64,000 nucleotides of DNA from Gemmatimonadales bacterium (GTDB lineage Bacteria > Gemmatimonadota > Gemmatimonadetes > Gemmatimonadales > GWC2-71-9): contig DASWII010000024.1 in NCBI GenBank assembly GCA_036397755.1, forward strand, positions 9,957 to 73,956. Direction: 5' to 3'. Positions 18,438-54,878 of the stretch are shown one piece after another; the stretch's first letter is position 1; each line of letters opens with the position of its first letter. Position numbers and translations under genes: made by a program. The notes beneath the pieces were generated by a model. It had not been told where the DNA came from, did not search any database, and saw only the letters and a program-made list of their open reading frames with translations.

Positions 18438-19427
18438 TCACGCTCCTTGTTGCCTCTGAATCAACAGTAACGCGAACCATTCGTCCGGATCGGTGAACAC
18501 GCGCCGGCTCTCGAGGCCGAATGCCCCGAGGTATCGCATCAGGTCCGGCAGCAGGAACTTGCGGCTGATCTCCACCATCACGCGTTCGCCCTCCGGGATG
18601 GGGATCCGCGCACCGAGCGGCGCAATGGTGACGGTCTGCGCCCGCGCGAACCGCGCGAAGATCTCCACGCGCTGCCAGGTCTCGCTATACCGCGCCTCGT
18701 GTTCAATGCCCTCGACGTCCAGCCCCGCACCCAACTCGCGGTTCATCCGCACGAACAGGTTTTTCGTGAATTCCGCGGTGACGCCCGCCGCATCGTTGTA
18801 GGCGGCGTCCAGCACCGCCGGATCCTTCACCAGGTCGGCGCCAAGCAGGAAATAGTCTCCCGGCGCGAGCGCCTGGGTCACGCGCGTCCAAAACGCGGCG
18901 CTCTCGCCCTGGTTGAAGTTCCCCAGCGTCGAACCGAGAAACGCCACCATGCACGGTGAATACTCCCGGAAGCGTGGAAACGCGTCCTGGTAGGGGCCCA
19001 CGATCGGGTGCACGTGGACCTGCGGATGGGCGGCCTCGATCCGGTCGTGCGCCGCCGCCAACGCGGCGCCGCTCACGTCGACCGGCACGTAGTGCAGGTC
19101 TCGCTTCGCCTCGGCATATGCCGAGAGCAGCAGCTCCGTCTTGGTGGACGAGCCGGATCCCAACTCGATCAGGCTCACCGGGCCCGTGATCGCCGCGATC
19201 TCGGGAGCCGCACGCTCCAGAATGCCAACCTCGGTGCGCGTCGGGTAGTACTCCGGGAGCTCCGTGATTTGCTCGAACAGTTCGCTGCCCCGCGCATCGT
19301 ACAGGTACTGACAGGGAAGCCAGCGCGGGGACTCGCTCAGCCCAAGCAAAACCGCCCGTGCGAACGCACGCGTCTCTTCCGACGGGACGGCGTCAGTCGC
19401 GTGCGCGCCCATCCGCCCGCCGTGCAT
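18438..19427 (-). CDS. egtD: L-histidine N-alpha-methyltransferase EgtD
   Basis: Motifs YLYDARGSELFEQITELPEYYPTRTE and LIELGSGSSTKT. The listed ORF carries about 107 implausible N-terminal codons. Start taken at Met108 (19427), alternative 19412. Confidence 0.9.
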   Translation of the reverse strand: MHGGRMGAHATDAVPSEETRAFARAVLLGLSESPRWLPCQYLYDARGSELFEQITELPEYYPTRTEVGILERAAPEIAAITGPVSLIELGSGSSTKTELLLSAYAEAKRDLHYVPVDVSGAALAAAHDRIEAAHPQVHVHPIVGPYQDAFPRFREYSPCMVAFLGSTLGNFNQGESAAFWTRVTQALAPGDYFLLGADLVKDPAVLDAAYNDAAGVTAEFTKNLFVRMNRELGAGLDVEGIEHEARYSETWQRVEIFARFARAQTVTIAPLGARIPIPEGERVMVEISRKFLLPDLMRYLGAFGLESRRVFTDPDEWFALLLIQRQQGA

Positions 19428-31197: not shown

Positions 31198-31382
31198 TCA
31201 AGGCGACGGTGACGGCGGTCGGCGCGGCGGCAGCCGGCGGCGTTCATTGCGGAGCTGACCCGGCTCACCGGGTTCACCGCTGTCGTGGGTACCACGCACG
31301 ACGGCAGAATCGCCCCGCCGGTAGCTGACAGCACGCCTCAGGGCAGAGACACCATCACAGTTCGAGATTGAGGAGAAGCAAC

Positions 31383-33709: not shown

Positions 33710-36700
33710 TCAGCCGCCTGGCTCCAACGCCGCGCGGTCCAGCAACGCTCCGCCAACTGCCGCCTCGGGTCGGTGCCGAACTTGCCAGCTGCGCCAAAGC
33801 AGATAGATGGCCGGGATCACCACCAGGGTGAGCACCGTGGACGTCACCATCCCGCCCACCATGGGCGCCGCGATGCGCTTCATCACGTCCGCACCGGTGC
33901 CCTGACTCCACAGAATCGGGGCCAGACCTGCCGTGATGGCGATGACGGTCATCATTTTGGGACGTAGTCGCTCCACCGCGCCCTCTCGCACCGCCTCGGC
34001 CACGTCCGTGCGCGAGCGCATCCGCCCCTCGCGGTCCCGATGGTGGAACGCCTCATCCAGATAGATCAGCATCACCACGCCGGTCTCGGCGGCCACGCCA
34101 GCCAGCGCGATGAAGCCCACCCACACCGCGACACTGGTGTTGTACCCCGCCAGCCAGATGTACCAAATGCCTCCCACCAGCGCGAACGGAACCGAGAGCA
34201 TGACGATGACCGACTCGGTCACGCCCCGAAAATTGAGATACAGCAGCAGGAAGATGATGCCGAGGGTCACCGGCACCACTAGGCGCAGCTTCTGGGCCAC
34301 GCGCTGCATGAACTCGTATTGCCCGCTCCAGGTGAGCGTGTAGCCTGTCGGGAGCTGGAGCTGCTGCGCCACCGTGCGTTGGGCATCCCGCACGTAGCTG
34401 CCCACGTCGCGCCCTTCGATGTCCACGAAGATGGTGGTGACGGGAAACGCATCTTCCGTCTTCACCGCCATCGGTCCCTGCACCACCTGAATGGTGGCAA
34501 CCTGGCCGAGGGGAATCTGGGTGATCCTCCGCGGGAGGCCGCCGGCGTTGCCGCCGTTTCCCACATCACTCATGCCGCCGCCGGTAGCCATGCCACCCAT
34601 GCCGGCCACCGCCGGGATGACCACTTCGCGGAGCTTCTGCAGGTTGTCGCGCAGCTCTCTGGGATATCGCACGTTCACCGCGTAGCGCTCCCGGCCCTCG
34701 ACCGTGGTGGCCGCATCCATGCCGCCGACCGTGGCCATGATGGCGTTGTGGATGTCGCCCACGTTGAGCCCGTAGCGGGCGGCTTCGGCACGGTCGATTT
34801 CGATGTCCACGTAGTAGCCGGAGACGCCCCGCTCGGCGAAGGCGCTGCGGGTGCCGGGGACCTGCTGGACAATGCGTTCGGCCCGCTCGCCCAGGGCCTG
34901 GAGCGTGTCGAGGTTCGGGCCGAAAATCTTGATCCCCACCGCCGTCCGGACCCCGGTCGCGAGCATGTCGATCCGGCCCTTGATAGGCATGGTCCAGGCG
35001 TTGGTGACGCCGGGCAGCTTGACCGCCCCGTCCATCTCGGCAATGAGCCGCTCGTAGGTCATGCCGCGGCGCCACTCCCTCTCGGGCTTCAGCGTGATGG
35101 TGGTCTCGTACATGTCCAGGGGCGCCGGATCGGTCGCCGTGTTCGCCCGACCTGCTTTGCCGAGCACGGTCTCGACCTCGGGGAACGAGGCCAGGACGCT
35201 GTCCTGGTAGCGCATGATTTCGCGCGACTGGGCGATGGAGACGCCCGGCACCGTGGTCGGCATGAAGAGCACGGAGCCCTCGTGCAGCTGTGGCATGAAC
35301 TCGCTCCCCAGCCGGCTCCAGGGAAGCACGGTAACGAGCAGCGCCACGGCGGCGCCGGCGATCACGATCCACGGCCGCCGAATAGCGAACTCGATCACGG
35401 GCCGGTACGCCCAGCGCAGCGCCCGGTTGACCGGGTTCTGCGCCTCGGGCCGGATCTTGCCGCGAATCAGATACCCCATCAGGACCGGGACCAGCGTGAT
35501 GGAGAGCAGTGCCGCACCGGCCATCGCGAAGGTCTTGGTGAACGCCAGCGGCTTGAACAGCCGGCCCTCTTGCTGCTCCAGCGCGAACACCGGCAGGAAG
35601 CTGAAGGTGATGATCAGGAGCGAGAAGAACAGCGGCGGGCCCACCTGCTTGGCACTCGCCAGCACAATCTCCCAGCGCGAGGCTGTGCCGTCGGCCCGCT
35701 CGAGGTGCTTGTGCATGTTCTCGATCATCACGATGGCGGCGTCCACCATGGCGCCGATGGCGATGGCGATCCCGCCCAGGCTCATGATGTTGGCGTTGAC
35801 CCCGATCCAGCGCATCACGATGAACGAAATCAAGATGCCCAGGGGCAGCGTGATGATGGCCACCAGGGCGGATCGGGCATGGAGCAGGAACAGGATCGCG
35901 ACGCCGGCCACGATGAGCGACTCCTCGATCAACTTCTCCTTGAGGTTGTCGATGGCGCGGTGGATCAGATCGCTTCGGTCGTAGGCCGTGCGGATGCGCA
36001 CGCCCGGCGGAAGGCCGGCCTTGATCTCCTCGAGGCGGGCCTTGACCGCTTCGATGGTCTTGAGCGCGTCGGTCCCGAACCGCATGACCACGATGCCGGC
36101 CACGACCTCGCCTTTGCCATTCAAGTCGGCGGCACCGCGCCGCGGGGCGGGCCCGATTTGCACCGTGGCGATGTCGCGCACCCGGATCGGCGTCCCGTTG
36201 GGCGTGATCCCCACCGCTACGTTCTCGATGTCCCGCACCCCCTCCAGGTAGCCCAGGCCGCGGATCATGTACTCGCGGCCGCCCATCTCCAGCACCCGCG
36301 CGCCGATGTCCGCATTGTGGGACCCGATCGCCTGCGCCACCCGGGTCACCGGGATATTGAAGGCCCGCAGCCGCTCCGGGTTGACCTCAACCTGGTACTG
36401 CTTCACGAACCCGCCGAGGCTGGCCACTTCCGAAACGCCGGGAACGGCCGTCAGCTGGTAGCGGATGTACCAGTCCTGCAGCGTTCGGAGCTGCGCCAGG
36501 TCCAGGCTGTCGGATTCGAGTGTGTACTCGAACACCCAGCCCACGCCCGTGGCGTCCGGCCCCAGCGTGGGCTCCACGCCGCCGGGCAGGCGCTGGCGGA
36601 TGCCGTTCAGGTACTCCAACACGCGGGACCGCGCCCAGTAGATGTCGGTGCCGTCCTCGAAGATCACATAGACCAGACTTAGGCCGAAGAACGAAAAGGC

Positions 36701-36949
36701 GCGGACCACCCGCGTGCCCGGCACCTTGAGCATCTCGGACGCGATGGGGTAGGTAACCTGGTCTTCCACGATCTGCGGCGCCTGCTCGCTGAAGTCGGTC
36801 TGGATAATGACCTGCACGTCCGACAGATCGGGTATGGCATCGAGAGGCGTGGTCGCCATCGCCCAGACGCCGCCGCCGATCAACCCAACCGTGGCCAGCA
36901 ACACCAGCCCCCGGTTGCGCAGCGACCAGGCGATGATGCCGTTAATCAT
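33710..36949 (-). CDS. CusA/CzcA family heavy-metal efflux RND permease
   Basis: 1079 aa. The N-terminus MINGIIAWSLRNRGLVLLATVGLIGGGVWAM..LDAIPDLSDVQVII is the hallmark of HME-RND pumps. Confidence 0.95.
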   Translation of the reverse strand: MINGIIAWSLRNRGLVLLATVGLIGGGVWAMATTPLDAIPDLSDVQVIIQTDFSEQAPQIVEDQVTYPIASEMLKVPGTRVVRAFSFFGLSLVYVIFEDGTDIYWARSRVLEYLNGIRQRLPGGVEPTLGPDATGVGWVFEYTLESDSLDLAQLRTLQDWYIRYQLTAVPGVSEVASLGGFVKQYQVEVNPERLRAFNIPVTRVAQAIGSHNADIGARVLEMGGREYMIRGLGYLEGVRDIENVAVGITPNGTPIRVRDIATVQIGPAPRRGAADLNGKGEVVAGIVVMRFGTDALKTIEAVKARLEEIKAGLPPGVRIRTAYDRSDLIHRAIDNLKEKLIEESLIVAGVAILFLLHARSALVAIITLPLGILISFIVMRWIGVNANIMSLGGIAIAIGAMVDAAIVMIENMHKHLERADGTASRWEIVLASAKQVGPPLFFSLLIITFSFLPVFALEQQEGRLFKPLAFTKTFAMAGAALLSITLVPVLMGYLIRGKIRPEAQNPVNRALRWAYRPVIEFAIRRPWIVIAGAAVALLVTVLPWSRLGSEFMPQLHEGSVLFMPTTVPGVSIAQSREIMRYQDSVLASFPEVETVLGKAGRANTATDPAPLDMYETTITLKPEREWRRGMTYERLIAEMDGAVKLPGVTNAWTMPIKGRIDMLATGVRTAVGIKIFGPNLDTLQALGERAERIVQQVPGTRSAFAERGVSGYYVDIEIDRAEAARYGLNVGDIHNAIMATVGGMDAATTVEGRERYAVNVRYPRELRDNLQKLREVVIPAVAGMGGMATGGGMSDVGNGGNAGGLPRRITQIPLGQVATIQVVQGPMAVKTEDAFPVTTIFVDIEGRDVGSYVRDAQRTVAQQLQLPTGYTLTWSGQYEFMQRVAQKLRLVVPVTLGIIFLLLYLNFRGVTESVIVMLSVPFALVGGIWYIWLAGYNTSVAVWVGFIALAGVAAETGVVMLIYLDEAFHHRDREGRMRSRTDVAEAVREGAVERLRPKMMTVIAITAGLAPILWSQGTGADVMKRIAAPMVGGMVTSTVLTLVVIPAIYLLWRSWQVRHRPEAAVGGALLDRAALEPGG

Positions 36950-43296: not shown

Positions 43297-44685
43297 TCAA
43301 CGGCCGGCTCGCGGCAACGCCTCCGGCAGATCCGCCACGACGTACGCCATGACCGCCATAGTGGCAACGCACAGCGCCACGTCGTGCGGATCGAGCTTGT
43401 CGATCGTGTCCGCGTCGGTGTGGTGATACCAAAATAACCTGGACTCATCCACGTCCAGCCCCATGCCGGGCACGCCCTCGCGCATGATCGGATCGATGTC
43501 CGCCCCGCCTCCACCCCGGTTGATCCTCCCTGCCCCGATGCCGTCGAGCAGCCGACCGACTTCCTGCGCGATCGCGAAGGCGGCGTCGGACCCCGAGAAA
43601 CCGAATCCAGCGGGCTTGAACACCCCGCCATCCGACTCGATCGCCAACACCGTGCGATCCAGCTCGTCCACGTGCGCGTCGCGGTATCCGGTGCCGCCGC
43701 GCAGACCGTTCTCCTCATTCGTCCACCCCACCGCGCGGATGGTCCGGCGGGGTCGCAACCCTAGGGCCTTGAGCAGGCGAATGGCCTCCCACGCGGCGAC
43801 GACACCACCGGCATCGTCCATCATCCCCTGCCCAACATCCCACGAGTCGATGTGACCACCCATCACGACGTACTCATCGGGGAGCTCGGTGCCGCGAAGT
43901 TCCGCCACCACGTTGCGGGACTCCACGTCGTCCTCGTCGCGGGCCTCCATGGTGAGGCGCACCACCACGCGTTCACCACGACGCTGCATCCGGTGCAACA
44001 TCTCCGCGTGCTCCACGGTGATCGCGGCGATGGGAATCCGCGGTACCGAGTCGCCGTAACCCATCGCACCGGTGTGGGGCGTTTGCTGGGAGTACGGCGT
44101 CACGGACCGGATCAGCGCGGCCACGGCCCCCGCTGAGCTGGCGGCGTCGGCACCCCGTGACCGGTAGCGCACGGTAGCCCCATAACTGGTGAACGGGGCG
44201 TTGAAGAGCACGATCTTCCCTCGGGCCTCCTCGGCTCGTTCCGACAGCTCCGCGAAGCTCGCCACGACCAAGACCTCCGCCGTGATCCCTCCAGGCGGCG
44301 TTCCGATGCTCCGTCCCAATCCAAGCATGGGCAGCGCGAGCGGTCGTGGCTCGACCAGCTCCGCCGATTCCCGTCCCCTGATCCACCGCGGGACCATGAC
44401 CGGTTCTCCCCGCACATTGTCCAGCCCATCCTCCTTCATCCGTTCCAGCATCCAGTCGATCGCCCGCTCCAGGCTCTCGGACCCACTGAACCGGTGACCG
44501 AACCGGTCGCCAAGCTCGGCGAGCCGCTCGTACGCCGAACTGTCGGCCACGGCGGCCGCGATGATTCGGTCCGCGGCATTGCGGTAGCGCGAGACGATGT
44601 CAGACTGGGCCAGCCCGTCGGTCGGGACGGCGGCGGTAAGCGACAATGCCACAACGAGTTGGCCAATGAGGGTGTGTGCGTACAT
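43297..44685 (-). CDS. M28 family metallo-aminopeptidase with PA domain, secreted
   Basis: GGHIDSWDVGQGMMDDAGG and WTNEENGLRGG are Zn-ligand motifs. The signal peptide begins at Met14. Confidence 0.85.
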   Translation of the reverse strand: MYAHTLIGQLVVALSLTAAVPTDGLAQSDIVSRYRNAADRIIAAAVADSSAYERLAELGDRFGHRFSGSESLERAIDWMLERMKEDGLDNVRGEPVMVPRWIRGRESAELVEPRPLALPMLGLGRSIGTPPGGITAEVLVVASFAELSERAEEARGKIVLFNAPFTSYGATVRYRSRGADAASSAGAVAALIRSVTPYSQQTPHTGAMGYGDSVPRIPIAAITVEHAEMLHRMQRRGERVVVRLTMEARDEDDVESRNVVAELRGTELPDEYVVMGGHIDSWDVGQGMMDDAGGVVAAWEAIRLLKALGLRPRRTIRAVGWTNEENGLRGGTGYRDAHVDELDRTVLAIESDGGVFKPAGFGFSGSDAAFAIAQEVGRLLDGIGAGRINRGGGGADIDPIMREGVPGMGLDVDESRLFWYHHTDADTIDKLDPHDVALCVATMAVMAYVVADLPEALPRAGR

Positions 44686-44777
44686 TTGAGGTCTTTCGGC
44701 GGGTCTTGAGAGAAAATTCACCACCCCTTTATGGGGGGAGGGAAAAACTTAACCGTGATTCAAACTTCTCGTTTCCC

Positions 44778-45383
44778 ATGACAACCGACGTGCTCGCCGG
44801 ATCACCACGGGTTCGGGCCCGGCACGCGCGGCGACGCGCGGAGATTCTCCATGCGGCGCTCGCGGCCTTCCGCCAGAACGGGTACCACACCACGACGCTA
44901 GACGATATCGCTGGTCGGTTGGGGATTCGCAATACCGCGCTGTATCACTACTTCCCCGACAAGGAAGCGATCCTGTACGCTTGTCATCAGGAGTCGCTCG
45001 CCGAGCTCGAGCGCATTCTGGATGAATCCGAGCACGTCGACCATACAGCGCGCGCCCGACTGGCTTTTCTCGTGCGCGAACACGTACGCGTCATGATCGA
45101 CACGCTCGAGGGGTCACCGCTCGCGTTTGAGGTATCCGCCCTGTCACCACAGCACCAGGCGGAGGTCATTCGTCGCCGCGACCGTTACGAGCGTGCGATC
45201 CGCGAACTCGTTGCCGACGGCATCGGGGCGGGAGAGTTTCGCACCGTCGATCCGAAGACGGCGACCTTTGCCATCCTCGGCGCGATCAATTGGATCGCCC
45301 GCTGGTACCGACCGGGTGGCGGTCTCAACGCCTCGCGATTGGGCCAGGACTTTGCCGAGCATCTCGTTGGAGGACTCACATGA
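44778..45383 (+). CDS. TetR/AcrR family transcriptional regulator
   Basis: The HTH TTLDDIAGRLGIRNTALYHYFPDKEAIL follows the ATG at 44778. Confidence 0.85.
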   Translation: MTTDVLAGSPRVRARHARRRAEILHAALAAFRQNGYHTTTLDDIAGRLGIRNTALYHYFPDKEAILYACHQESLAELERILDESEHVDHTARARLAFLVREHVRVMIDTLEGSPLAFEVSALSPQHQAEVIRRRDRYERAIRELVADGIGAGEFRTVDPKTATFAILGAINWIARWYRPGGGLNASRLGQDFAEHLVGGLT

Positions 45384-46444
45384 CCGCCGTCACCGACACC
45401 AGAAAGTTCACCGCGCGCGCCCCCGCGAGCTACGACTTCCGCGAGATTCTGTACGAGAAGAAGGACCAAGTCGCGCGCATCACACTCAACCGTCCACAGG
45501 CCTACAACGCCTACTCGACCGAAGCGCTGGAGGAACTCGCGACAGCGTTCCGCGACGCCAGCTTCGACGATGCGGTGGGCGTCATCGTGTACACCGGCGT
45601 GGGCGATCGGGCGTTTTGTACCGGCGGCGACGTGAAGGAATACGCCGAGAGCTACGTGCGCACGCCGCGTGACTATTGGAAGTACATGGCCTTGTTCCGG
45701 GCGTACATCGAGGCGATTCTCAACACCGGGAAGCCGGTGGTGGCACGCATCAATGGGATGGCGGTTGGCGGCGGCAACGAAAGCCAACTCGCGTGCGACC
45801 TGAGCGTCATGGCGCAGCACACGTTCATCAAGCAGGTCGGCACGCACGTGGGCTCCGTGGCGTGCGGCGGGTCGACGCAGTGGCTGCCACTGGTGGTGGG
45901 CGACAAGCGCGCCCGCGAGATCCTGATGCTCAACGAACCGATCCCCGCGCTCAAGGCGCTGGACTGGGGCCTGGTGAATTGGGTGGTGCCCACTGTCCGC
46001 AAGGGCGACCAGTGGATCGACGAGGCCGACGCGACGGAAATCAAGCACGCGCAGCGGGGCGAGGAGGATTACACCATCGACTTGAGCCGACTCGACACGA
46101 CCGTCGCCGACGTGTGCCGGCGCCTGCTCGCGTCCTTCCCCGAGTGTACGCGCTACACCAAGCAGCAAGTCAACTTCTGGAAGGACCTGGCTTGGCACTC
46201 GACGGTACGGCACGCGCAGGATTGGCTGAGCCTGCACTACACGTGCTGGGAGCCTGCCGAGGGTATGCAAGCGTTCGTGGAGAAGCGCGCCGCCCGGTAC
46301 GACTTGCTCCGCGAGCGAGCCGCGGAGGGCCGGTCGTCCGAAACCCCGTGGGGCACCCCGGTGGCGGCCTGCGCGGCGTGCGGCGCCAAAGGGCTACCCG
46401 CCGATCACCGGTACTGTGGCGTATGCGGCGTACCGCTCTCGTAA
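45380..46444 (+). CDS. oah: Crotonase-fold ring-opening hydrolase, 6-oxocyclohex-1-ene-1-carbonyl-CoA hydrolase (Oah/BamA)-like, with a C-terminal CxxC-X12-CxxC zinc-ribbon tail
   Basis: VYTGVGDRAFCTGGDVKEYAESY...YMALFRAYIEAIL..KPVVARINGMAVGGGNE..ACDLS runs parallel to my memory of Thauera Oah. The 354-aa length also fits. ATGA overlap with the tetR stop. Confidence 0.72.
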   Translation: MTAVTDTRKFTARAPASYDFREILYEKKDQVARITLNRPQAYNAYSTEALEELATAFRDASFDDAVGVIVYTGVGDRAFCTGGDVKEYAESYVRTPRDYWKYMALFRAYIEAILNTGKPVVARINGMAVGGGNESQLACDLSVMAQHTFIKQVGTHVGSVACGGSTQWLPLVVGDKRAREILMLNEPIPALKALDWGLVNWVVPTVRKGDQWIDEADATEIKHAQRGEEDYTIDLSRLDTTVADVCRRLLASFPECTRYTKQQVNFWKDLAWHSTVRHAQDWLSLHYTCWEPAEGMQAFVEKRAARYDLLRERAAEGRSSETPWGTPVAACAACGAKGLPADHRYCGVCGVPLS

Positions 46445-47136
46445 CCGGAGCCGCGCGGGGCATCGGCCGCGCCATCGCCACCGCCCTGGCGGAGGACGCG
46501 TGGGTGGCGGGACTCGATCTGTCCTTTCCGGACGGGGGCGACTGGCTCGGTCGGGCAATCGAGGCGAACGTCGCCGACCCCGAAGCCGTGCAGCGTGCGG
46601 TGCACTCCGTGCGCGTCGAGCGTGACGGCATCGACATCGTCGTCTGCGCCGCGGGGATTATTCAAGACCACATCAGTTGGAAGATGGACGACAAGGCCTG
46701 GCATACCGTCCTCGACGTGAATCTCTCCGGGACGTTCTACACGGTGCGCGCCGCCGCGCCGGCGCTGCGACAGTCGTCCGCCGGCCGGGTCGTACTCATC
46801 AGCTCCATCAATGGCCTGCGCGGACGCCTGGGACAGGCCAATTATGCGGCGTCCAAGGCGGGCGTGATCGGGCTCGGCAAGACGCTGGCCGCCGAGTTTG
46901 CGCGTGACGGCGTGACGGTCAACGTGATCGCCCCGGGATACATCGACACGCGGATGACCAAGAATCTCCCGGCCGCGGTGCGGGAGCAGGCGGTCGCGCG
47001 CACCCCGCTCGGCCGCATGGGCCAACCTGAAGACGTCGCACACCTCGCGGTCTTCCTCACGAGCGAACGCGCCGGGTTCATCACAGGAACCGTGATTCCG
47101 GTCGACGGAGGACAGCTGTTGGGGGGCGCGGTATGA
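46423..47136 (+). CDS. Short-chain dehydrogenase/reductase (FabG-like 3-oxoacyl reductase)
   Basis: ALVTGAARGIGRAIA and the catalytic YAASKAGVIGL. Encoded in the tail of the listed ORF 45676-47136. The start overlaps the oah 3' end by 22 nt. Confidence 0.85.
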   Translation: MRRTALVTGAARGIGRAIATALAEDAWVAGLDLSFPDGGDWLGRAIEANVADPEAVQRAVHSVRVERDGIDIVVCAAGIIQDHISWKMDDKAWHTVLDVNLSGTFYTVRAAAPALRQSSAGRVVLISSINGLRGRLGQANYAASKAGVIGLGKTLAAEFARDGVTVNVIAPGYIDTRMTKNLPAAVREQAVARTPLGRMGQPEDVAHLAVFLTSERAGFITGTVIPVDGGQLLGGAV

Positions 47137-47897
47137 GTGGGGCGCTCGTGCATACCTCGGAGTCCGACGGGATCGGACGCATCACCCTCGATCATCCGCC
47201 GCTCAACATCCTGACGCGCGCCGTGCTCGGCGAATTCCGCGGAGGCCTGGAGCGACTGCGCGGTGATACCACGTTGCGCGTGATCATCGTGGACGCGGCG
47301 GGCAAGCACTTCTCCGCCGGCGCCGACGTCGGCGAGCACGTCCCGCCCGAATGCGACGAGATGATTCCGGAGTTCGTGGCGACGATCCGCGCGCTCTATG
47401 AGTTTCCGACCCCGACCATCGTGGCGGTGCACGGCAAGTGCCTGGGCGGTGGCTGCGAACTCGCGCTCGCGGGCGACCTTGTCGTCGCCACGGACGCCGC
47501 GGTGTTCGGCCAGCCCGAGATCTTGCTCGGCGTGCTGCCGCCCGCGGCGTGTGCACTGCTCCCCGGCCGCGTGCCTGCCGCCGTCGCCGCGGAGCTGGTG
47601 TTGACCGGAGATCCGATGACGGCACCTGACCTCCATCGGGCCGGTCTCGTGAACCGTGTCGTGCCGCCCGACGACCTGGAGGCCGCCGCACTCGCCCTGG
47701 CGCGGCGCATCGCCCGACACAGCGCCGCCTCCGTGCGCGCGGGCAAGCGCATGCTCCACAGTGGCGTGGACGACCGCGGCGCCGCGCTGGAGCGGGCCGG
47801 ACAGCTATACCTGAACGACCTGATGCAAACGGACGATGCCCGCGAGGGACTCCGGGCGTTTCTCGAGAAACGTGCACCCGCCTGGAGCCACCGGTGA
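47133..47897 (+). CDS. dch: Enoyl-CoA hydratase, cyclohexa-1,5-diene-1-carbonyl-CoA hydratase (Dch)-like
   Basis: FSAGADVGEHVPPECDEMI, GKCLGGGCELALAGD, FGQPEILLGV and the C-terminal EGLRAFLEKRAPAWSHR closely track my memory of Thauera Dch. ATGA overlap with the SDR stop. Confidence 0.75.
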   Translation: MSGALVHTSESDGIGRITLDHPPLNILTRAVLGEFRGGLERLRGDTTLRVIIVDAAGKHFSAGADVGEHVPPECDEMIPEFVATIRALYEFPTPTIVAVHGKCLGGGCELALAGDLVVATDAAVFGQPEILLGVLPPAACALLPGRVPAAVAAELVLTGDPMTAPDLHRAGLVNRVVPPDDLEAAALALARRIARHSAASVRAGKRMLHSGVDDRGAALERAGQLYLNDLMQTDDAREGLRAFLEKRAPAWSHR

Positions 47898-47904
47898 GCG
47901 CGCG

Positions 47905-49074
47905 ATGGTGACCGAGCCCCTCTTCCCGGCCTGGCGCGACACCGCGCTCGACGAAACGCTGTACGAGTGCCGTGAACTCCTAGAGGATACGGGGTTCCCG
48001 ACGGTCGCGCGCTGGCGCGAGCGCGGCGGCAAGGTGCTGGGACACTTCCAGGTCTACTTCCCGGAGGAGATCGCGCACGCCGCCGGGATGCTCCCGGTGA
48101 AGTTGCGTGGAGCCCCCGTCGAGCCGGCTCGCGCGGACTCGCTGTTCGGATCCTACTTGTGCTCCATCCTCAAGACGTCGCTCGAGATCGCGCTCTCGAA
48201 CAAGATCGTGCTCGACATGTTCGTGACGCACCCGATCTGCGATGCGGCGCGAAACCTCGCGGGGATCTGGGGACGAAACTTCGCGTACCCCTGTGAGATC
48301 CTGTATTTGCCCCAGAACGCGAACTCCGGTCACACCACCACCTACCTCCGCGGTGAGTACGACCGCTTGCGGCGGCGTATCGAGGAGGTGGCCGGCGCCG
48401 CCGTGACCGATGACGCGCTGCGCGCGTCCACCGAGATCTACAACACCAATCGCGCGCTGCTGCGCGACCTGTACGCGTTGAAGCGCACGGCGCCTTGGCT
48501 GGTCACGGCGGACGAGGCGTACGTCCTGATGGCCGTGGGCAGCGTGCTCCCTCGTGAGGAACACAACGCGCTCCTCGCCGCCACGCTGCCGCGGCTCGCC
48601 GCCCGAAACGCCAAACCGCAGGACCGCGTCCGCGTGGTGTTCGAGGGTGGCTTCTGCGAGCAACCTCCGCTGGACTTGATTCGTGTGCTGGGACGGTCGT
48701 GCTACGTGGTCGACGACGACTTCCTGATCGGCCTCCGCTGGCTCACCGACGACGTGCCGCTCGACGGCGACGCGCTGGCTAATCTCGCGGAGGCCTACGT
48801 CCATCGGTCGTCGTACAGTCCCGTCCAGCACGACCTGCGGAAGAGGAAAGAGGACATGCTGCTCGAACGCATTCGCGCGTCCGGGGCGCAGGCGGCGGTC
48901 GTGACGGCGGCGAAGATGTGCGAGCCGGGACTCGAGGAGCAGGTGACGTACACCCGCACCCTGGACGCCGCGGGGATTCCGTACTTCGTGAGCGAGTTCG
49001 AGGAGAACATGACCAGTTTCGACCATCTCGAGATACAGCTCGAGACGTTCGTCGAAAACCTGTTGTTTGAGTGA
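47905..49074 (+). CDS. 2-hydroxyacyl-CoA dehydratase family protein, benzoyl-CoA reductase subunit C (BcrC/BzdN)-like
   Basis: 389 aa from Met24 of the listed ORF. GKVLGHFQVYFPEEIAHAAGMLPV is typical of the HgdB/BcrC family. Confidence 0.75.
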   Translation: MVTEPLFPAWRDTALDETLYECRELLEDTGFPTVARWRERGGKVLGHFQVYFPEEIAHAAGMLPVKLRGAPVEPARADSLFGSYLCSILKTSLEIALSNKIVLDMFVTHPICDAARNLAGIWGRNFAYPCEILYLPQNANSGHTTTYLRGEYDRLRRRIEEVAGAAVTDDALRASTEIYNTNRALLRDLYALKRTAPWLVTADEAYVLMAVGSVLPREEHNALLAATLPRLAARNAKPQDRVRVVFEGGFCEQPPLDLIRVLGRSCYVVDDDFLIGLRWLTDDVPLDGDALANLAEAYVHRSSYSPVQHDLRKRKEDMLLERIRASGAQAAVVTAAKMCEPGLEEQVTYTRTLDAAGIPYFVSEFEENMTSFDHLEIQLETFVENLLFE

Positions 49075-50386
49075 GGGAATCGTGAACGGAGCACGCGACA
49101 CCCACGAACTCGTCGGCCGCGGCAACCAGGCGGGCGCTCAGCTGTTCCGCGACTGGTTCGACGAGTTGAACGCCGCCGCCGCGGAGGATCGGCGTGGCGC
49201 GTACGTGTTCGTCATGGGGAGTCTGGCCGAACTGTTGCGCGTGTTCGACTTCCCCCTCGTCTTCCCGGAGATCAACTCGCTGCAGACCGCGGTACGCCGC
49301 GTGGCGCACGAATACCTGAACGAAGCGGAGGACTACGGCTACTCTCCGGACATCTGCGGCTATGTGAAAGCCGACGTGGCGGTCCAGTTGCGTCACGGGG
49401 CGCACCCGATGGGCCAGATCCCCAAGCCCGCACTCGCCGTCTATACGAATGCCTGCAATACCTACATCAAGTGGGCCGAGATCTGGGAACGGATGTACGA
49501 CATCCCCATCTTCACGCTGGATGTCCCCGGGACACGCGGGGCGGGGCGACAGACGTGGCCGGGGCACGTCGACTTCGAGAACGATCGCCGGTATGTGCGC
49601 GCCCAGCTCGGGGAGCTGATCACCCTGTGCGAGCGTGTGTCCGGCAAGCGCTTCGACATCGACCGGTTGCGCGAGTGCCTGATGCATGCGAACGCCATGC
49701 ACCAGTCGTGGCAACGTCTGCTCGAACTCAACCGGGCACGACCGTCGGTGTTCAACGCGTTGTCAGACGGGACGATTTACCTCGGCGTGTCGAACGGGTT
49801 CCGCGGCACGGCCGCGGGCGCGACGTACTTCCGCGACCTCGTGGAGGAAATGGAGTACAAGGTCGCCCACGGAATCGGGACGCTCACGGAGGAACAGTAT
49901 CGGCTGCTCTTCGTCGGGGTGCCCTGCTACCCGATCTTCCGGCGGTTCAACGAGTTGTTCACGGAGTGGGGTGGAACGTTCGTGAACTCCACGTATTTGT
50001 GGTTCGCCTCCGGCGGATCCAACGTGGGATTCCAATACGACCTCGCGAGCCCGCTCGACAGCCTTGCCGAAGGGGTGCTGGTGAACGTGCGCGACGCGAT
50101 GGACAGCATGTTCTTTCAGGATCGCATCCTCGCCCAGATGATCGACGACTTCAGCGCGGACGGGATCGTATATCACCCCATCAAGAGTTGCCGCACCGTG
50201 TCCACCGGCCTGGCGGACAACCGGCGCGCCCTGATGCAGCAGCGGGACATCCCGAGCCTGTTCATCGAGTCCGACATGATGGATCGCCGGGTCGTCTCGG
50301 AGGCCCAGCTGAAGAATCGGGCGGACGCGTTCTTCGAGGGCCTCGGCGCTCGCCGCCACCAAGCCGCCACCCTCCCGGCCACGTAG
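49067..50386 (+). CDS. 2-hydroxyacyl-CoA dehydratase family protein, benzoyl-CoA reductase subunit B (BcrB/BzdO)-like
   Basis: 439 aa. [23 protein letters not shown] and [10 protein letters not shown] are Cys-containing motifs of the HgdA/BcrB family. TTG start at 49067 (8-nt overlap) or GTG at 49082. Confidence 0.75.
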
Positions 50387-50396
50387 GAGAGCTCGC

Positions 50397-51212
50397 ATGG
50401 CGTATGCAGCCGGTGTCGACGTCGGTTCGACGCAGACGAAGGCCGTCATCATCGACGAGGCGCGCACGATCGTCGCGCGATCGCTCACCGACACGGGCGC
50501 CAACGTGATTCGCGCGGCGGAGCAGGCCTACCAGGAAGCGCTCCACGCCGGCCGACTCCAGGAGGAGGAAGTCGAGTATGTCATCGGCACGGGCTACGGG
50601 CGCTACAAGGTGACCTTCGGGAACTCACAGGTCACCGAGATCAGCTGTCACGCCCGCGGTTCCGTGCACATGTTCCCGAAGACCCGCACCGTGGTCGACA
50701 TGGGCGGCCAGGACACGAAGGCCATCCGGGTGTCACCGTCCGGCGAGATCGTCGACTTCTGCATGAACGACAAGTGCGCGGCCGGCACCGGGCGGTTTCT
50801 CGGGGCCGCCTCCAGCGCGCTCGACATCGAGTTGGGCTCGCTGGGTCCGACCGCGCTCCGCGGCGAACGCCCCGTGAGGATCAGCACCACGTGCACCGTG
50901 TTCGCCGAGTCCGAGGTGCTGTCGTGGCTTGGGAAGGGCAAGAAGATCGAAGACATTCTACTCGGCGTCCATCAGTCCATCGCCGCCCGTTCCATCGGCC
51001 TGCTGCGTCGTGTCGGCATCGAAGATCAGGTGACGTTCACCGGCGGCGTCGCGCGCAATGTGGCGATGGTGAGCTGCCTCAACGCGCGGCTCGAGCAGCC
51101 GGTCAACGTGAGCGACGACTCGCACTTCATGGGAGCGCTCGGCGCGGCGCTGTTCGCGCTCGATCGGATCGTGACCAGCCGATCACCCGTCGCGGCCGGA
51201 GGTGCCCAATGA
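50397..51212 (+). CDS. BadF/BadG/BcrA/BcrD-type ATPase (reductase electron-activating subunit 1)
   Basis: ASKHA fold: [24 protein letters not shown], and cluster-bridging cysteines in [11 protein letters not shown] and TCTVFAESE. Confidence 0.85.
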
Positions 51213-52030
51213 CGTACACGGCGGGCATCGACATCGGTTCGACCTATACGAAAGCACTCATCCTCGACGAGGAACGCGCCATCGTCGGGCAGAGCATGCG
51301 ACCGACCGGATTCAAGCTCGACACCGTGTCCCAGACCGTCCTGCACGAGGCCCTGGATCGGGCGGGTCTCCAACGCGGTGACGTCGCCTACGTGGTGGCC
51401 ACCGGCTTCGGCCGGCACCAGGCCTCGGACGCCGACACATCCGTGACCGATCTGACGGCGGCCGCCCGAGGCGTGACCCACCTCTTCCCCAACACCCGGA
51501 CGATTCTCGACGTCGGCGGCCAAACGATGAAGGCGAGCCGTCTCGAGAATGGGTGGAAGGTCAAGTCGTTCCGACTCAACGACAAGTGCGCAGCCGGCAC
51601 CGGCGCGTTTCTGGAGAAGACCGCGCGGTACATGGGCTATACGACCCTGGAGATCGGTCCGCTCGTGACGACGTCGAAGGAAGCGATTCCCATCTCGGGC
51701 GTCTGCGCGGTCTTTGCGGAATCCGAAGTCATCAACCACCTGTCACAAGGTGTCTCGCCCGCCGACATCATGCATGGAGCCATGGTCTCCCTGGTGGGTC
51801 GGTCCGTGCAGTTGATGAAGCGTGTCCGCATGGAACCGGAATACACGCTCGTCGGCGGGATTTTGCGATTCGAGAAGATGAAGGAAGCGGTCGAGGAGCA
51901 GATCGGCGCCGGCGTGAACGTGCCTCCGCCCGATCAAGTGCAGTTCAGCGCCGCGCTCGGCGCCGCATTGCTGGGATTCCAGCGCGTGGGTCACAAGAGC
52001 GCCGGTGCGGCGCCGGGAGCAACGGTGTGA
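51209..52030 (+). CDS. BadF/BadG/BcrA/BcrD-type ATPase (reductase electron-activating subunit 2)
   Basis: The ATG at 51209 overlaps the previous stop (ATGA). [35 protein letters not shown] and VCAVFAESE. It is a distinct paralog of the preceding gene. Confidence 0.85.
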
Positions 52031-52347
52031 TCGAGCCCGATCCGCGGCTGCTCGGGTCCATCGTGGAGCAGGAGGCGCAACGCACCCTGTCGGAGGCCGA
52101 CCTGCAACCGGACCCGGCGCGGGTCGCCGCAGGGTGGACGCGTCGCTTCATCACCGATCGCACGCGGCTCGATGAGGTGCGAGCTCTCTACGAGGAATTG
52201 GGATTCGTCGTTGAGGTCGATTCCGTGCGGTCGACCCAGGTGGGAAAGGACTGCGAGGACTGCTACCTCGTGGCGCTCGAACGGTTCGTCACGGTGTACA
52301 CGCGGCGGCGCGAAGTACACGGGCCGACGACGGGAGGTGGGGAATGA
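52027..52347 (+). CDS. Small conserved-looking hypothetical protein with a CEDC (CxxC) motif
   Basis: The GTG at 52027 forms a GTGA overlap with the ATPase stop, and the stop overlaps the next ATG (ATGA). 106 aa: VIEPDPRLL...AAGWTRRFITDRTRLDEVRALYEELGFVVEV...GKDCEDCYLVALERFVTVYTRRR. Confidence 0.55.
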   Translation: MIEPDPRLLGSIVEQEAQRTLSEADLQPDPARVAAGWTRRFITDRTRLDEVRALYEELGFVVEVDSVRSTQVGKDCEDCYLVALERFVTVYTRRREVHGPTTGGGE

Positions 52348-53366
52348 AAGCAGCAGTATTCCATGGGCCGGATCGTCCACTCGAAGTCACCGACGTTCCG
52401 ACCCCCGAACCGGATCGCCACGAGGTGCTCGTCCGCGTCGCGGGCTGCGGGATGTGTCATACGGACTTGCACTACATCGATCACGGCGTCCAGACCTTCA
52501 AGTCCCCGCCGATCATCCTCGGTCACGAGGCCGCCGGCACAATTGCCGAGTTGGGCGAGGCTGTGACGGGGTGGGCTGAGGGAGACCGCGTACTCATCCC
52601 CGCCGTGCTGTCGTGCGGCCGGTGTCCCTACTGTCGGGAGGGGCGCGAGAACCTGTGCGACAACTTGCGCATGCTCGGCAACCACATGGACGGAGCGTAC
52701 GCGGAGTTCGTCCGCGTGCCGGCGGATGAGTTGATCCGCGTGCCGGCAAGTCTGCCACTCGAGAAGGCATGCGTGGTGGCCGACGCGCTCTCGACGCCCT
52801 ACCACGCCGTCACCCGCAGGGCGCGCGTGCGCGCCGGCGAACAGGTGGCGGTCGTCGGGTGCGGGGGCGTCGGACTCAATGTGGTACAGTGCGCGGTGGC
52901 GGTGGGTGCGACGGTCACCGCCATCGACGTCAACGAGGCCCGGCTCGAGATCGCGCGGGAACTCGGAGCCAGCGAAACGATCAACCCCAAGGACCACGAG
53001 CGCCTGGACAAGGTGGTACGGAAGCGCACGGACGGTGGCGTGTCAGTCGCGTTCGAGGCCATCGGGTCGCCCGCCACCATCCGTCTGGCCTTCAACCTGT
53101 TGCGTCGGGGCGGACGCCTGTGCGTGATCGGATTCTCTCACGAAGAGGTGAGCCTTGCCGCCGGCAAGATCATGTTCTACGAACTCGAGGTCATCGGCAG
53201 CCTGGGGTGTGGCGGCGGCACCTACCCGGAGATCCTGAGCCTCCTTCAAGCAGGCCGGCTCCAACTGGACCCCGTGGTCTCGGGCTCGATCGAACTGGAC
53301 AATATCAACACGGGGTTCGACCGGCTGCGTCGGGGCGAGGGAGTGCGCTGGGTCGTGACGCCGTAG
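52344..53366 (+). CDS. had: Zn-dependent alcohol dehydrogenase family, 6-hydroxycyclohex-1-ene-1-carbonyl-CoA dehydrogenase (Had)-like
   Basis: GCGMCHTDLHY, GHEAAGTIAELG, structural-Zn CGRCPYCREGRENLC and Rossmann VVGCGGVGLN. The Had assignment rests on operon context. Confidence 0.8.
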   Translation: MKAAVFHGPDRPLEVTDVPTPEPDRHEVLVRVAGCGMCHTDLHYIDHGVQTFKSPPIILGHEAAGTIAELGEAVTGWAEGDRVLIPAVLSCGRCPYCREGRENLCDNLRMLGNHMDGAYAEFVRVPADELIRVPASLPLEKACVVADALSTPYHAVTRRARVRAGEQVAVVGCGGVGLNVVQCAVAVGATVTAIDVNEARLEIARELGASETINPKDHERLDKVVRKRTDGGVSVAFEAIGSPATIRLAFNLLRRGGRLCVIGFSHEEVSLAAGKIMFYELEVIGSLGCGGGTYPEILSLLQAGRLQLDPVVSGSIELDNINTGFDRLRRGEGVRWVVTP

Positions 53367-53573
53367 CTTCCCACTCCATCCCTTCGTTCACCGCACCTTC
53401 ACGAAGGGTTCAGACGTCAGGCGGGATATTGGCGCAAGAACAGGGCGCGCCAGCCCGGTACCGCACGGTTCGGGTTCGCCAGCGAGGGGGGCGATTGACT
53501 CCTACCTTTGAGTCATCGTGGCGCGACCTGTTCTTTTGCATGCCTGCCGGCCGCGTTCACCGGACCGATAATC

Positions 53574-54878
53574 TCATCCGCCGCAGTCGCCTGCCGTACG
53601 CGGACCCGGCGTCTCGGTCACACGCACCCGATAACGCCCCGTCTGCCCAGGCAGGGTGGTGTTGACTACGATGCGATAGCGACCCGCGCCGGGGGATGGC
53701 AGGGTGACCCGGGAGTCACAGGCCCCCGCCCCATCATCGTCACGCCAGATCTCTCCGTCCGGCGCCACGACGAACAAGAAGGCGTCGAAATCATCCGACA
53801 GCACGTCGACCGTCACGCTGGGTACGCCTCCGCGAAGCTGCAGTTCCCACGCCTGCACCCACGAGCCGTCGGGGCCCCCGGCATCCGCCGTGCTCAACTC
53901 CCCACCGTGCTCGCGGCCCAGCTCAAGCATTCGCCCCGCGACCGGCAAATCGTTCAACCAGTCGCTCGAAATGTCGGCGCAGTCACCTTCCATGGTGGGA
54001 CCAGGCGTGGTCGTCACGCGCAGTCGAAAACGCCCCACCGCTCCTTCACCGATGCTGTTGGCCACCACGCGGTAGGTGCCCGACGCGCCGGCGGTAAAGT
54101 CAATTCGGGCGTAGCACCCGCCTGCCCCGTCATCGTCGTATAGAGGATCCTCCATTCCCGGCCCAATGAACATCAGGAACGGGTCGAACGCCTCGGAGAG
54201 CAAATCAATGACGACGCGATCACCGACGTTCAAGTTGAGCGCCCACGCCTGCACATGCGATCCGTCCCCCGAAACGCTGTCGCCCTCGGAGAGCGCGCCC
54301 GGGAACTCCTGGCCGACACGGAGCGACCGTCCGTCGGTGGGCAGCGACCGGAGCCACTCGACGTTGACTCCCGCGAACGCGTCGGGGTCCTCCAACCCAT
54401 CGCCGCGGCAGCTCCCCTCGGTGATCGGACCCGGCTCCGTACTGACCCGCACGCGGAACCGCCCCACCGACTCGACCGCGATGGTGTTCACCACCACGCG
54501 ATAGAGTCCGGTCTCGGGCGCCTCGAACGTGAGCCGCGCGTCGCAGGCACCTGCACCGTCATCGTCCGAGAGATGTTCGTCGAACCCCGGACCGCCGATC
54601 AGCAGGTAGGAATCGAAATCGTCCGACAACAGGTCGACCGTCACCGATTGCCCGCGCTGCAACTCGATCCCCCACGCCTGCGCGTAGGTCCCGTCCACCC
54701 ATTTCGCGTCCTCGGCCGTCAGCGTTCCCGCCGCCTCCGACCCAATCGTGAGCCGGCGGTTCTGCAACGAAAGCCGACCGATCTCGTCCAAGCCTTGGGC
54801 GCGGGCGCTTGCCGGAACCATCGTCAGCAACGCCAGAACACTCCACCGGAGCCCGGTCCGCATGCGCACGTGCCGCAT
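53574..54878 (-). CDS. Secreted protein built of three tandem ~130-aa PPC-like repeats
   Basis: Starts at Met234 (54878) or Met239 (54863) of the listed 667-aa ORF, giving signal peptide MRTGLRWSVLALLTMVPASARAQ. Three repeats share G.L...D......QAW...L..G..V.(V/I)D(L/V)LS..FD..L.......DDDGAG.C..R......G.YR(V/I)V.N......GR(F/Y)R(V/L)RV...PGP...G.C. Confidence 0.75.
   Translation of the reverse strand: MRHVRMRTGLRWSVLALLTMVPASARAQGLDEIGRLSLQNRRLTIGSEAAGTLTAEDAKWVDGTYAQAWGIELQRGQSVTVDLLSDDFDSYLLIGGPGFDEHLSDDDGAGACDARLTFEAPETGLYRVVVNTIAVESVGRFRVRVSTEPGPITEGSCRGDGLEDPDAFAGVNVEWLRSLPTDGRSLRVGQEFPGALSEGDSVSGDGSHVQAWALNLNVGDRVVIDLLSEAFDPFLMFIGPGMEDPLYDDDGAGGCYARIDFTAGASGTYRVVANSIGEGAVGRFRLRVTTTPGPTMEGDCADISSDWLNDLPVAGRMLELGREHGGELSTADAGGPDGSWVQAWELQLRGGVPSVTVDVLSDDFDAFLFVVAPDGEIWRDDDGAGACDSRVTLPSPGAGRYRIVVNTTLPGQTGRYRVRVTETPGPRTAGDCGG

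Follow-up and report, generated by a model that had tools for sequence, protein, structure and literature searches.

Class I benzoyl-CoA reductases are the gateway to the oxygen-free breakdown of aromatic compounds, and most of what is known of their biochemistry comes from a small number of denitrifying and phototrophic Proteobacteria. Classical bcr, bzd and mbd gene clusters carry a dedicated ferredoxin gene. Three types of the enzyme are recognised, BCR, MBR and BZD (Fuchs et al. 2025, PMC11971306), and Aromatoleum sp. CIB contains both a bzd and an mbd cluster (PMC4424350). Class I bcr genes are already known from metagenome-assembled genomes (MAGs) of Chloroflexota, Acidobacteriota, Gemmatimonadota, Zixibacteria and Krumholzibacteriota (PMC11704145; PMC10936416), so their occurrence in these phyla is not new. 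Here, we analysed a ten-gene operon in a 64-kb stretch of contig DASWII010000024.1, which belongs to the MAG of an uncultured soil bacterium of the Gemmatimonadales (the stretch is referred to as the window, and coordinates are those of the whole window). A first-pass annotation had proposed that this cluster encodes a class I, ATP-dependent dearomatising reductase with Dch-, Had- and Oah-type genes behind a TetR regulator, and homology to the Mbd proteins, active-site residues and synteny all agree with that proposal. The operon very probably encodes an MBR-type class I aroyl-CoA reductase together with the enzymes that open the reduced ring. What is new is the assignment to the MBR-like subtype, sister to MbdO, with the size and conservation of its clade and its systematic generic naming at NCBI. 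Also new are two alternative Had/Oah sets, a conserved operator, and a conserved fifth gene that goes with a general absence of ferredoxin genes. The cluster consists of the following features.

44778–53366, + strand: ten-gene cluster; open reading frames (ORFs) were found at every position where the first-pass annotation had placed one
44778–45383, + strand: TetR-family regulator, 201 aa, TetR_C_24 type (Pfam TetR_N and TetR_C_24)
45380–46444, + strand: predicted Oah-like ring hydrolase, 354 aa, a divergent crotonase of the MenB/BadI/Oah branch (dearomat_oah, 216 bits)
46423–47136, + strand: FabG-like short-chain dehydrogenase (SDR), 237 aa (NF009466)
47133–47897, + strand: predicted Dch-like cyclohexa-1,5-diene-1-carbonyl-CoA hydratase, 254 aa (dienoyl_CoA_hyt, 200 bits)
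47905–49074, + strand: reductase subunit N (gamma, predicted electron-transfer FeS subunit), 389 aa (MbdN, 9g87_B, 525 bits, 59% identity)
49082–50386, + strand: reductase subunit O (beta, predicted catalytic, substrate-binding subunit), 434 aa (MbdO, 9g87_A, 528 bits, 53% identity)
50397–51212, + strand: ATPase subunit Q (alpha), 271 aa (MbdQ, 9gai_D, 408 bits, 71% identity)
51209–52030, + strand: ATPase subunit P (delta), 273 aa (MbdP, 9gai_C, 321 bits, 58% identity)
52027–52347, + strand: 106-aa CxxC protein, candidate fifth component (no Pfam or NCBIfam match)
52344–53366, + strand: Had-like Zn-dependent alcohol dehydrogenase, 340 aa, divergent (dearomat_had, 256 bits)

The four central proteins were compared by phmmer with the sequences of solved structures, with identities taken over the alignable, full-length span. 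N and O score 525 and 528 bits against MbdN and MbdO, as opposed to 121 and 108 bits against HadC and HadB of (R)-2-hydroxyisocaproyl-CoA dehydratase. Likewise, Q and P score 408 and 321 bits against MbdQ and MbdP, and 220 and 184 bits against the Had activator. N and O both belong to PF06050 (HGD-D) and resemble each other only weakly and locally (~25% over 102 residues), while Q and P both belong to PF01869 (BcrAD_BadFG) and are 40% identical to each other. These comparisons support the assignment of N/O/Q/P as a predicted class I ATP-dependent aroyl-CoA reductase of the MBR (MbdONQP) subtype. The first-pass annotation had instead favoured the Azoarcus (BZD) type on the basis of subunit size. 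We rejected this assignment, since N and O reach only 90 and 99 bits against BzdN and BzdO and the BZD type lies far away in the phylogeny.

No reductase subunit of the window passes the curated NCBIfam equivalog models for BcrA–D (TIGR02259-63) or BzdN–Q (TIGR03190-92). The top equivalogs are BcrC for N (264 bits, cut-off 421), BcrB for O (210 bits, cut-off 487), BcrA for Q (217 bits, cut-off 578) and BcrD for P (135 bits, cut-off 313). For Q and P these are outscored by the generic activase domain TIGR00241 (256 and 205 bits), which is the sole model above its cut-off (125). A scan of 1.84 billion cluster representatives returned 1,520 relatives of O, and the nearest full-length representatives (of 50% clusters) fail the BcrB model as well, at 189–297 bits. 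Two true BcrB representatives, P0293 and P0295, pass it with 815 and 630 bits and are 35–36% identical to the window O. The low scores of the reductase subunits thus reflect the lack of an MBR-type model in NCBIfam and not a difference in function. The same lack explains the generic names that PGAP gives to these proteins at NCBI, '2-hydroxyacyl-CoA dehydratase' and 'acyl-CoA dehydratase activase' (e.g., HEX9691426 and HEX9691428). JGI records carry specific names, such as 'benzoyl-CoA reductase subunit C', 'cyclohexa-1,5-dienecarbonyl-CoA hydratase' and '6-hydroxycyclohex-1-ene-1-carbonyl-CoA dehydrogenase'.

To place the catalytic subunit, we built a neighbour-joining (NJ) tree of 101 O-type sequences, using capped distances, midpoint rooting and 50 bootstraps. 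The window O lies inside a tight clade of MAG sequences that is sister to MbdO, with moderate support (34/50 bootstraps). True BcrB sequences form a separate clade, HadB and the BZD type are distant, and between the MBR and BCR types there are numerous clades without a characterised member. A grouping with 2-hydroxyacyl-CoA dehydratases had been named in the first-pass annotation as the outcome that would speak against it; both the bit scores and the tree group the subunits with the benzoyl-CoA reductases.

The active-site residues tell a similar story. The active site of BzdO contains the cluster ligands Cys95, Cys128 and Cys380, the catalytic Glu65 and, beside the cluster, His131 (PMC11971306). 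Cys92, Cys125 and Cys370 of the window O align with the three ligands, and Glu63, which lies within a conserved FPEINSLQ stretch with an invariant PE motif, is the likely counterpart of the catalytic Glu65. The position of His131 is occupied by Tyr128 in the window O and by Phe in MbdO and BcrB, and the KSCRTVS sequence around the third cysteine is the same in the window O and MbdO. In N, Cys86, Cys112 and Cys339 align with cysteines common to MbdN, HadC and BzdN. These three are retained, but the additional cysteines of BzdN, candidate ligands of its six-cysteine [8Fe-9S] cluster, are missing from N, which makes such a double-cubane cluster unlikely there. The paired cysteine motifs claimed for both ATPases were located at the same positions in each, Cys127 in NDKCAAGTG and Cys166 in CTVFAESE (Q) or CAVFAESE (P).

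Among the described systems, Mbd (Thauera chlorobenzoica/Aromatoleum sp. CIB; PDB 9g87, 9gai, 9gal and 9gba) has subunits of nearly the same size, with N/O/Q/P of 388/445/269/273 aa in the PDB chains and 389/434/271/273 aa here. The window O and MbdO have the cysteines, the FPEINSLQ glutamate motif and KSCRTVS in common, and a TetR-family repressor heads the window operon just as the mbd genes are under MbdR (PMC4424350). The two systems differ in gene order (O-N-Q-P in mbd, N-O-Q-P here) and in host (Betaproteobacteria for Mbd, Gemmatimonadota here). A 9-residue insertion of MbdO is missing from the window O, in which Tyr instead of Phe stands three positions after the second cysteine. The conserved operator of the orthologous loci is TTCAAAnTTTGAA, whereas that of mbd is ATACN10GTAT. 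Near the window operon there are no genes for an MbdM-type ferredoxin, a ligase or a transporter, and the clade of the window has a conserved 106-aa gene after P.

The other systems are less alike. BcrCBAD/BadDEFG (Thauera/Rhodopseudomonas; TIGR02259-02263) shares family and architecture with the window enzyme and supplies the top NCBIfam models for N and O, and BcrB also has Phe/Tyr rather than His after the second cysteine. However, N and O score far under the cut-offs, BcrB P0293 and P0295 fall in a separate clade, and the window ATPases lack the long N-terminal part of BcrA, matching model positions 229–432 only. BzdNOPQ (Aromatoleum sp. CIB; PDB 8s02; PMC11971306) has the three cysteine ligands and the catalytic glutamate of O and ATPases of similar size, and the same overall reaction would be expected. 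It differs in its low similarity, the replacement of BzdO His131 by Tyr, the extra BzdN cysteines and its regulator, which is BzdR and not a TetR. HadBC with HadI (PDB 3o3m and 4eht) shares the superfamily, the Pfam domains and ATP-driven electron injection through a Cys-bridged [4Fe-4S] ATPase. Unlike the window system, it has a homodimeric activator, HadI, instead of two distinct ATPases, and the window genes have ring-opening-type neighbours rather than fermentation genes.

The ten genes form a real operon. Recomputed from the sequence, the junctions are a 4-nt ATGA overlap between the TetR and Oah-like genes (45380), a 22-nt overlap between the Oah-like and SDR genes (46423), an ATGA overlap between the SDR and Dch-like genes (47133) and a 7-nt gap between the Dch-like gene and N (before 47905). 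They continue with a 10-nt gap between O and Q (before 50397), an ATGA overlap between Q and P (51209), a GTGA overlap between P and the small gene (52027) and an ATGA overlap between the small gene and the Had-like gene (52344). This recomputation left the ten co-directional, tightly packed genes of the first-pass annotation in place and changed only the start of O. The second dehydratase-like gene had been read from TTG 49067, giving 439 aa and an 8-nt overlap with N. The start is probably GTG 49082 instead, which gives a 434-aa product, leaves a 7-nt gap after N and has a Shine-Dalgarno-like GAGGGAA box 5 nt upstream. JGI contigs with identical sequence also have O called from GTG 49082, and an exact look-up of the 439-aa product found no match. 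Pfam agrees gene by gene with the domain content claimed before (TetR_N and TetR_C_24; ECH_1; adh_short; ECH_1; HGD-D; HGD-D; BcrAD_BadFG; BcrAD_BadFG; none; ADH_N and ADH_zinc_N). As the same ten-gene set is called on independent metagenome contigs of identical sequence and its order is found again in many further genomes, the arrangement is not due to chance. No internal terminator-like site occurs in 44500–53700 (9.2 kb), against 4.0 +/- 2.1 in shuffles, and neither a sigma-70-like promoter nor an intrinsic terminator was detected in a scan of this region. The G+C content of the cluster (0.65–0.69) is not distinct from that of the remaining window. The proteins are on record as HEX9691423–HEX9691431 ('MAG TPA: Gemmatimonadales bacterium'), and several metagenome contigs at JGI and ENA carry them too.

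Of 185,579 species genomes, at least 578 contain a protein related to O, and we examined synteny in the best 80 loci (numbered with an L below). All 80 are from MAGs, with O subunits 74–82% identical to that of the window and no cultured organism among them. Gemmatimonadota make up the majority; the others are Blastocatellia, Terriglobia, Thermoanaerobaculia, Vicinamibacterales, Anaerolineae/Caldilineales, Planctomycetota, Acidimicrobiia and one 'Proteobacteria', so that the phylum-level groups include Acidobacteriota and Chloroflexota. The N subunit matches more than 6,500 protein clusters. A tblastn search with O against 72,556 plasmids found distant relatives only (at most 27% identity). 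The order N-O-Q-P is invariant in 80/80 loci, and it is embedded in several layouts.

Layout A (the window): TetR, divergent Oah-like gene, SDR, Dch, N-O-Q-P, small gene, divergent Had-like gene; complete in L007, L016, L023, L027 (an Acidimicrobiia MAG), L043 and L074
Layout B: TetR, Had, Oah, SDR, thiolase, DUF35 (ChsH2-like), Dch, N-O-Q-P, small gene; L049 (3398–8803), L009, L028, L038, L050, L061–L063, L076 and L077
Layout C: PaaX-type regulator, N-O-Q-P, Oah, Dch, SDR, Had; Chloroflexota
Layout D: Amidohydro_2, SDR, N-O-Q-P; Blastocatellia
Layout E: BZD-type reductase and BzdV-like oxidoreductase directly upstream of N-O-Q-P; Gemmatimonadota L011, L020, L032 and L046

Layout A occurs in ~12 loci in total, some of which (L036, L056, L068 and others) have no detectable match to the small protein or are cut by a contig end. 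A PaaX regulator replaces TetR in L018 (943–1809), L019, L022, L031, L033, L037, L045, L051, L067, L075, L078 and L081, mostly from Chloroflexota and Terriglobia; the PaaX loci other than those of layout C (Terriglobia and others) have a shorter or different gene set. In Blastocatellia/Pyrinomonadaceae, N-O-Q-P comes after an Amidohydro_2 gene (decarboxylase family) and a distant SDR in L010, L015, L019, L040, L048, L057, L058, L059 and L069 (7060–7989), and the CxxC gene is missing in most of the Amidohydro_2 loci that reach far enough downstream. In L020, the only one of the four layout E loci that was tested, the BzdO-like gene (2663–3967) scores 681 bits against TIGR03191 (cut-off 449), and it is followed by an 855-aa BzdV-like FeS/flavin oxidoreductase (6046–8610) and then by MBR-like N-O-Q-P and small genes. 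As this BzdO passes TIGR03191 upstream of MBR-like N-O-Q-P genes, two class I types lie side by side. Across six phyla the N-O-Q-P proteins are 65–88% identical, and the co-located TetR, Dch, Had and small proteins 42–74%. Within the MAG clade, O sequences group roughly by phylum. The overall pattern suggests strong constraint on N-O-Q-P, with old transfers.

Next, we considered the enzymes that would act after the reductase. The first-pass annotation had asked whether generic beta-oxidation families would fit the Dch/Had/Oah genes better; for each of the three, the dearomatising model is the best, although all scores are below the cut-offs. The Oah-like protein scores 216 bits with dearomat_oah (cut-off 464) versus 165 for MenB and 159 for BadI, and its nearest solved structures are MenB. 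The Dch-like protein scores 200 bits with dienoyl_CoA_hyt (cut-off 292) versus 176 for EchA19, and the Had-like protein 256 bits with dearomat_had (cut-off 339) versus 213 for threonine dehydrogenase (Tdh). The SDR, which is retained in most cluster variants, is above the cut-off of the NF009466 FabG subfamily (228 versus 222 bits) and resembles acetoacetyl-CoA reductase; it may be a dehydrogenase of 3-hydroxyacyl-CoA, namely 3-hydroxypimeloyl-CoA. Locus L049, of layout B, has an O subunit 79% identical to that of the window, and its Had (474 bits, cut-off 339) and Oah (558 bits, cut-off 464) both pass the curated models. Its Dch, with 194 bits, is below the cut-off and of the same type as the window Dch-like protein. 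Because N-O-Q-P there adjoins Had and Oah above curated cut-offs, the reductase clade is tied to the canonical dienoyl-CoA pathway. Among layout A loci, the Oah-like protein is 75–81% identical and the Had-like protein 69–74%, and identities to their layout B counterparts are 33–38% and 37–41%, respectively. By these identities, the window Oah-like and Had-like proteins represent a second, divergent type that is conserved among layout A loci.

From the homology, ligand residues and gene order observed here we infer a substrate, an effector and a series of activities, as follows. TetR would sit on an operator at the operon promoter when substrate is absent and would be released by an aroyl-CoA or an alicyclic CoA thioester. 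The Q/P heterodimer would bind a single [4Fe-4S] cluster through Cys127 and Cys166 of both subunits and use ATP hydrolysis to drive low-potential electrons into N/O. O is predicted to carry an aqua-[4Fe-4S] cluster (Cys92, Cys125 and Cys370, with a water ligand beside Glu63) that receives the electrons through N, and would reduce benzoyl-CoA or a ring-substituted analogue to cyclohexa-1,5-diene-1-carbonyl-CoA in a Birch-like reaction. The Dch-like hydratase would then add water to the dienoyl-CoA, the Had-like Zn-dehydrogenase would oxidise the 6-hydroxyl group, and the Oah-like MenB-family crotonase would hydrate and hydrolytically open the ring to give 3-hydroxypimeloyl-CoA. The FabG-like SDR may oxidise this product toward beta-oxidation. 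The CoA ligase, the electron donor and the recharging enzyme would be encoded elsewhere in the genome.

The regulator of the operon belongs to a conserved group. TetR is the first gene of the cluster in 25 loci, with 59–72% identity, and its best solved relatives are 3dcf, 3vpr, KstR2, DarR and FadR. Several of these relatives are acyl-CoA-responsive, KstR2 and FadR being among the acyl-CoA-sensing repressors. A palindrome, TTCAAAnTTTGAA, lies at most 130 nt upstream of TetR in 18/25 orthologous loci, with 19 matches elsewhere in 1.17 Mb. A frequent form of this operator is GTTCAAAwTTTGAAC followed, after 4 nt, by GTTCAAA, ~17 nt downstream of a TTGACA box. No inverted repeat was detected in the region upstream of the window TetR; what the window has is a possible remnant.

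44748–44764, + strand: putative remnant operator CTTAACCGTGATTCAAA, 14 nt upstream of the start codon of TetR, right-hand part only

This is the single match to CTTAACCGTGATTCAAA in the window, against 0.01 expected. MbdR binds the operator ATACN10GTAT and responds to the inducer 3-methylbenzoyl-CoA (PMC4424350). We considered TetR as an orthologue of MbdR and rejected it, as MbdR (4uds) scores 42 bits and there are many better matches. The pairing of MbdR with ATACN10GTAT that goes with the MBR subtype is thus replaced here by a different TetR and a different conserved operator. As the operator and inducer of MbdR are known and both parts differ in the window, the regulatory logic appears analogous to that of mbd, with parts that are not orthologous.

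The 106-aa gene, a conserved companion of the reductase, belongs to no named family. A word-index search with the single sequence gave 3 matches, so an alignment query was used to count the family; this profile search found at least 566 homologues, all called 'hypothetical'. Invariant residues are G36, W37, R40, F41, L54, Y55, G59, C76, C79, F87, Y91, T92 and R93, within the motifs GW.RRF, LY..G.EV, C76..C79 and YTR. According to a hidden Markov model (HMM) search, the gene lies directly 3' of P in 53/64 loci that extend far enough, is slightly further downstream in L033, and occurs at no unrelated position among the loci searched. It is absent mainly in the Blastocatellia layout. Two distant homologues likewise lie 3' of the second ATPase gene. 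An AlphaFold (AF2) model with a pLDDT of 77 shows a small alpha/beta unit, and no significant fold match was found in the PDB. The protein is a candidate for a conserved accessory of the reductase.

Several observations weigh against an MBR-type reductase with a ring-opening pathway. All eight catalytic genes stay below the NCBIfam equivalog cut-offs, and for the Oah-like and Had-like proteins the shortfall is a real divergence from the canonical enzymes, to which they are 37–40% identical. O is only 53% identical to MbdO, and the substrate range therefore cannot be carried over from one to the other. Every close relative is derived from a MAG. The operator is degenerate in the window, where the full palindrome TTCAAAnTTTGAA was not found. 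The 64-kb window also contains no ORF of at least 50 aa with a CxxCxxCxxxC ferredoxin motif and no 2-oxoacid:ferredoxin oxidoreductase, and Pfam detected no AMP-binding ligase in the 20 larger ORFs upstream of the operon, nor do the downstream gene calls on the identical JGI contig include one. A dedicated ferredoxin and a recharging oxidoreductase are thus not encoded with the reductase in the window.

That neither a ferredoxin nor a benzoate-CoA ligase lies in the window had been observed in the first-pass annotation, and the same is true across the clade: a small 2x[4Fe-4S] ferredoxin ORF occurs within 10 kb in 1/80 related loci, and a standard aryl-CoA ligase lies near none of them. We therefore keep the caveat that the substrate may differ from benzoyl-CoA, and extend it to the clade. 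In seven Gemmatimonadota loci (L011, L020, L021, L049, L061, L062 and L076), N-O-Q-P is followed, after a few kb, by an indolepyruvate-type 2-oxoacid:ferredoxin oxidoreductase (IOR). A 4Fe-4S dicluster (Fer4) domain is fused to the C terminus of its alpha subunit, and a beta subunit is present in 6/7 of these loci (e.g., L061 17259–18989 and L020 16406–16981). As a candidate electron source, this IOR has no counterpart in the window. The sole CoA-ligating enzyme seen in the window is a 710-aa ADP-forming acyl-CoA synthetase (CoA_binding_2, Succ_CoA_lig and ATP-grasp_5; 6515–8647, + strand), which is 36 kb away from the operon and has no evident connection to it.

Could the genes encode something other than an aroyl-CoA reductase? 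Their PGAP names, the HGD-D and BcrAD_BadFG domains that both kinds of enzyme share, and the fact that only the generic TIGR00241 passes its cut-off would all fit a 2-hydroxyacyl-CoA dehydratase with its activator, carrying out a catalytic, electron-recycling dehydration during the fermentation of amino or hydroxy acids. We consider this very improbable. The scores against HadC and HadB (121 and 108 bits) are far below those against MbdN and MbdO (525 and 528 bits), O is far from HadB in the NJ tree, there are two different ATPase genes instead of one for a homodimeric activator, and the neighbours are of the Dch/Had/Oah type, with no CoA-transferase or 2-hydroxyacid dehydrogenase. The generic names, moreover, follow from NCBIfam having no MBR-type model. 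A reductase of the BCR family whose substrate has a ring other than benzoyl (for example, a bicyclic or alicyclic CoA ester that is partly reduced), or whose role is biosynthetic, with the crotonases and dehydrogenases serving another beta-oxidation-like route, would account for the scores of all catalytic genes below the equivalog cut-offs. It would also suit the many uncharacterised clades between the MBR and BCR types and the thiolase and ChsH2-like DUF35 pair of layout B, a pair that typically belongs to side reactions of the alicyclic or steroid type. This, too, is improbable, if slightly less so, because the subunits are 53–71% identical to an enzyme proven on benzoyl-type substrates, the clade is linked to Had and Oah above curated cut-offs, and no biosynthetic genes lie nearby.

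A closer contest concerns the substrate. With the same chemistry, the enzyme could act on a ring-substituted aroyl-CoA (3-methyl-, 3-hydroxy-, methoxy- or halo-benzoyl-CoA) from lignin or humic matter, with the divergent Oah-like and Had-like enzymes adapted to it; we regard this as a serious possibility, though somewhat short of even. The nearest characterised enzyme is 3-methylbenzoyl-CoA reductase, and the Oah-like and Had-like proteins are a distinct type, 69–81% conserved in many Gemmatimonadota. The BzdO-like gene beside N-O-Q-P in four Gemmatimonadota loci suggests a division of labour between two reductases, comparable to bzd and mbd in Aromatoleum sp. CIB (PMC4424350), and other variants adjoin an Amidohydro_2 decarboxylase-family gene or a PaaX regulator. 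However, in layout B a 79%-identical O occurs together with canonical Had and Oah, which favours unsubstituted benzoyl-CoA as the substrate in those loci, and the window has no ligase or peripheral-pathway gene that would indicate a particular substituent. The MBR of Thauera is promiscuous and also reduces benzoyl-CoA. A substituted ring thus overlaps with the reading of the operon as an MBR-type reductase with ring-opening enzymes, and does not exclude it. Within that reading, the MAG clade might go further and form a distinct five-gene MBR variant, in which the 106-aa protein replaces the ferredoxin gene as fifth component and the divergent Oah-like/Had-like pair handles a non-hydrogen ring substituent. 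The small protein might then be an electron-entry adaptor, a partner that carries an FeS cluster or a disulfide, or a factor for maturation or oxygen protection. This extension is rather unlikely as a whole, but if true, a very widespread soil enzyme system would depart from the textbook in both electron supply and substrate.

The MBR-type assignment has consequences for how dearomatising capacity is counted. Because of the generic NCBI names, surveys based on names would under-count it. If the enzymes are active, abundant soil and sediment lineages (Gemmatimonadota, Acidobacteriota, Chloroflexota, Planctomycetota and Acidimicrobiia) may account for a considerable part of the anaerobic or micro-oxic turnover of aromatics in soils. 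The small gene, the missing ferredoxin and the two Had/Oah sets are experimentally approachable.

The first-pass annotation had found the surroundings of the operon unlike those of a classical denitrifying or phototrophic aromatic degrader, which holds for the following genes in the rest of the window. Those at 13911–17045, 17152–18480, 19645–22593, 31368–33041 and 33710–36949 encode two Sortilin/BNR proteins, an EgtB-like FGE-sulfatase/DinB_2 protein, a mercuric-reductase-like protein (HMA and Pyr_redox_2) and an RND efflux pump, all unrelated to aromatic catabolism.

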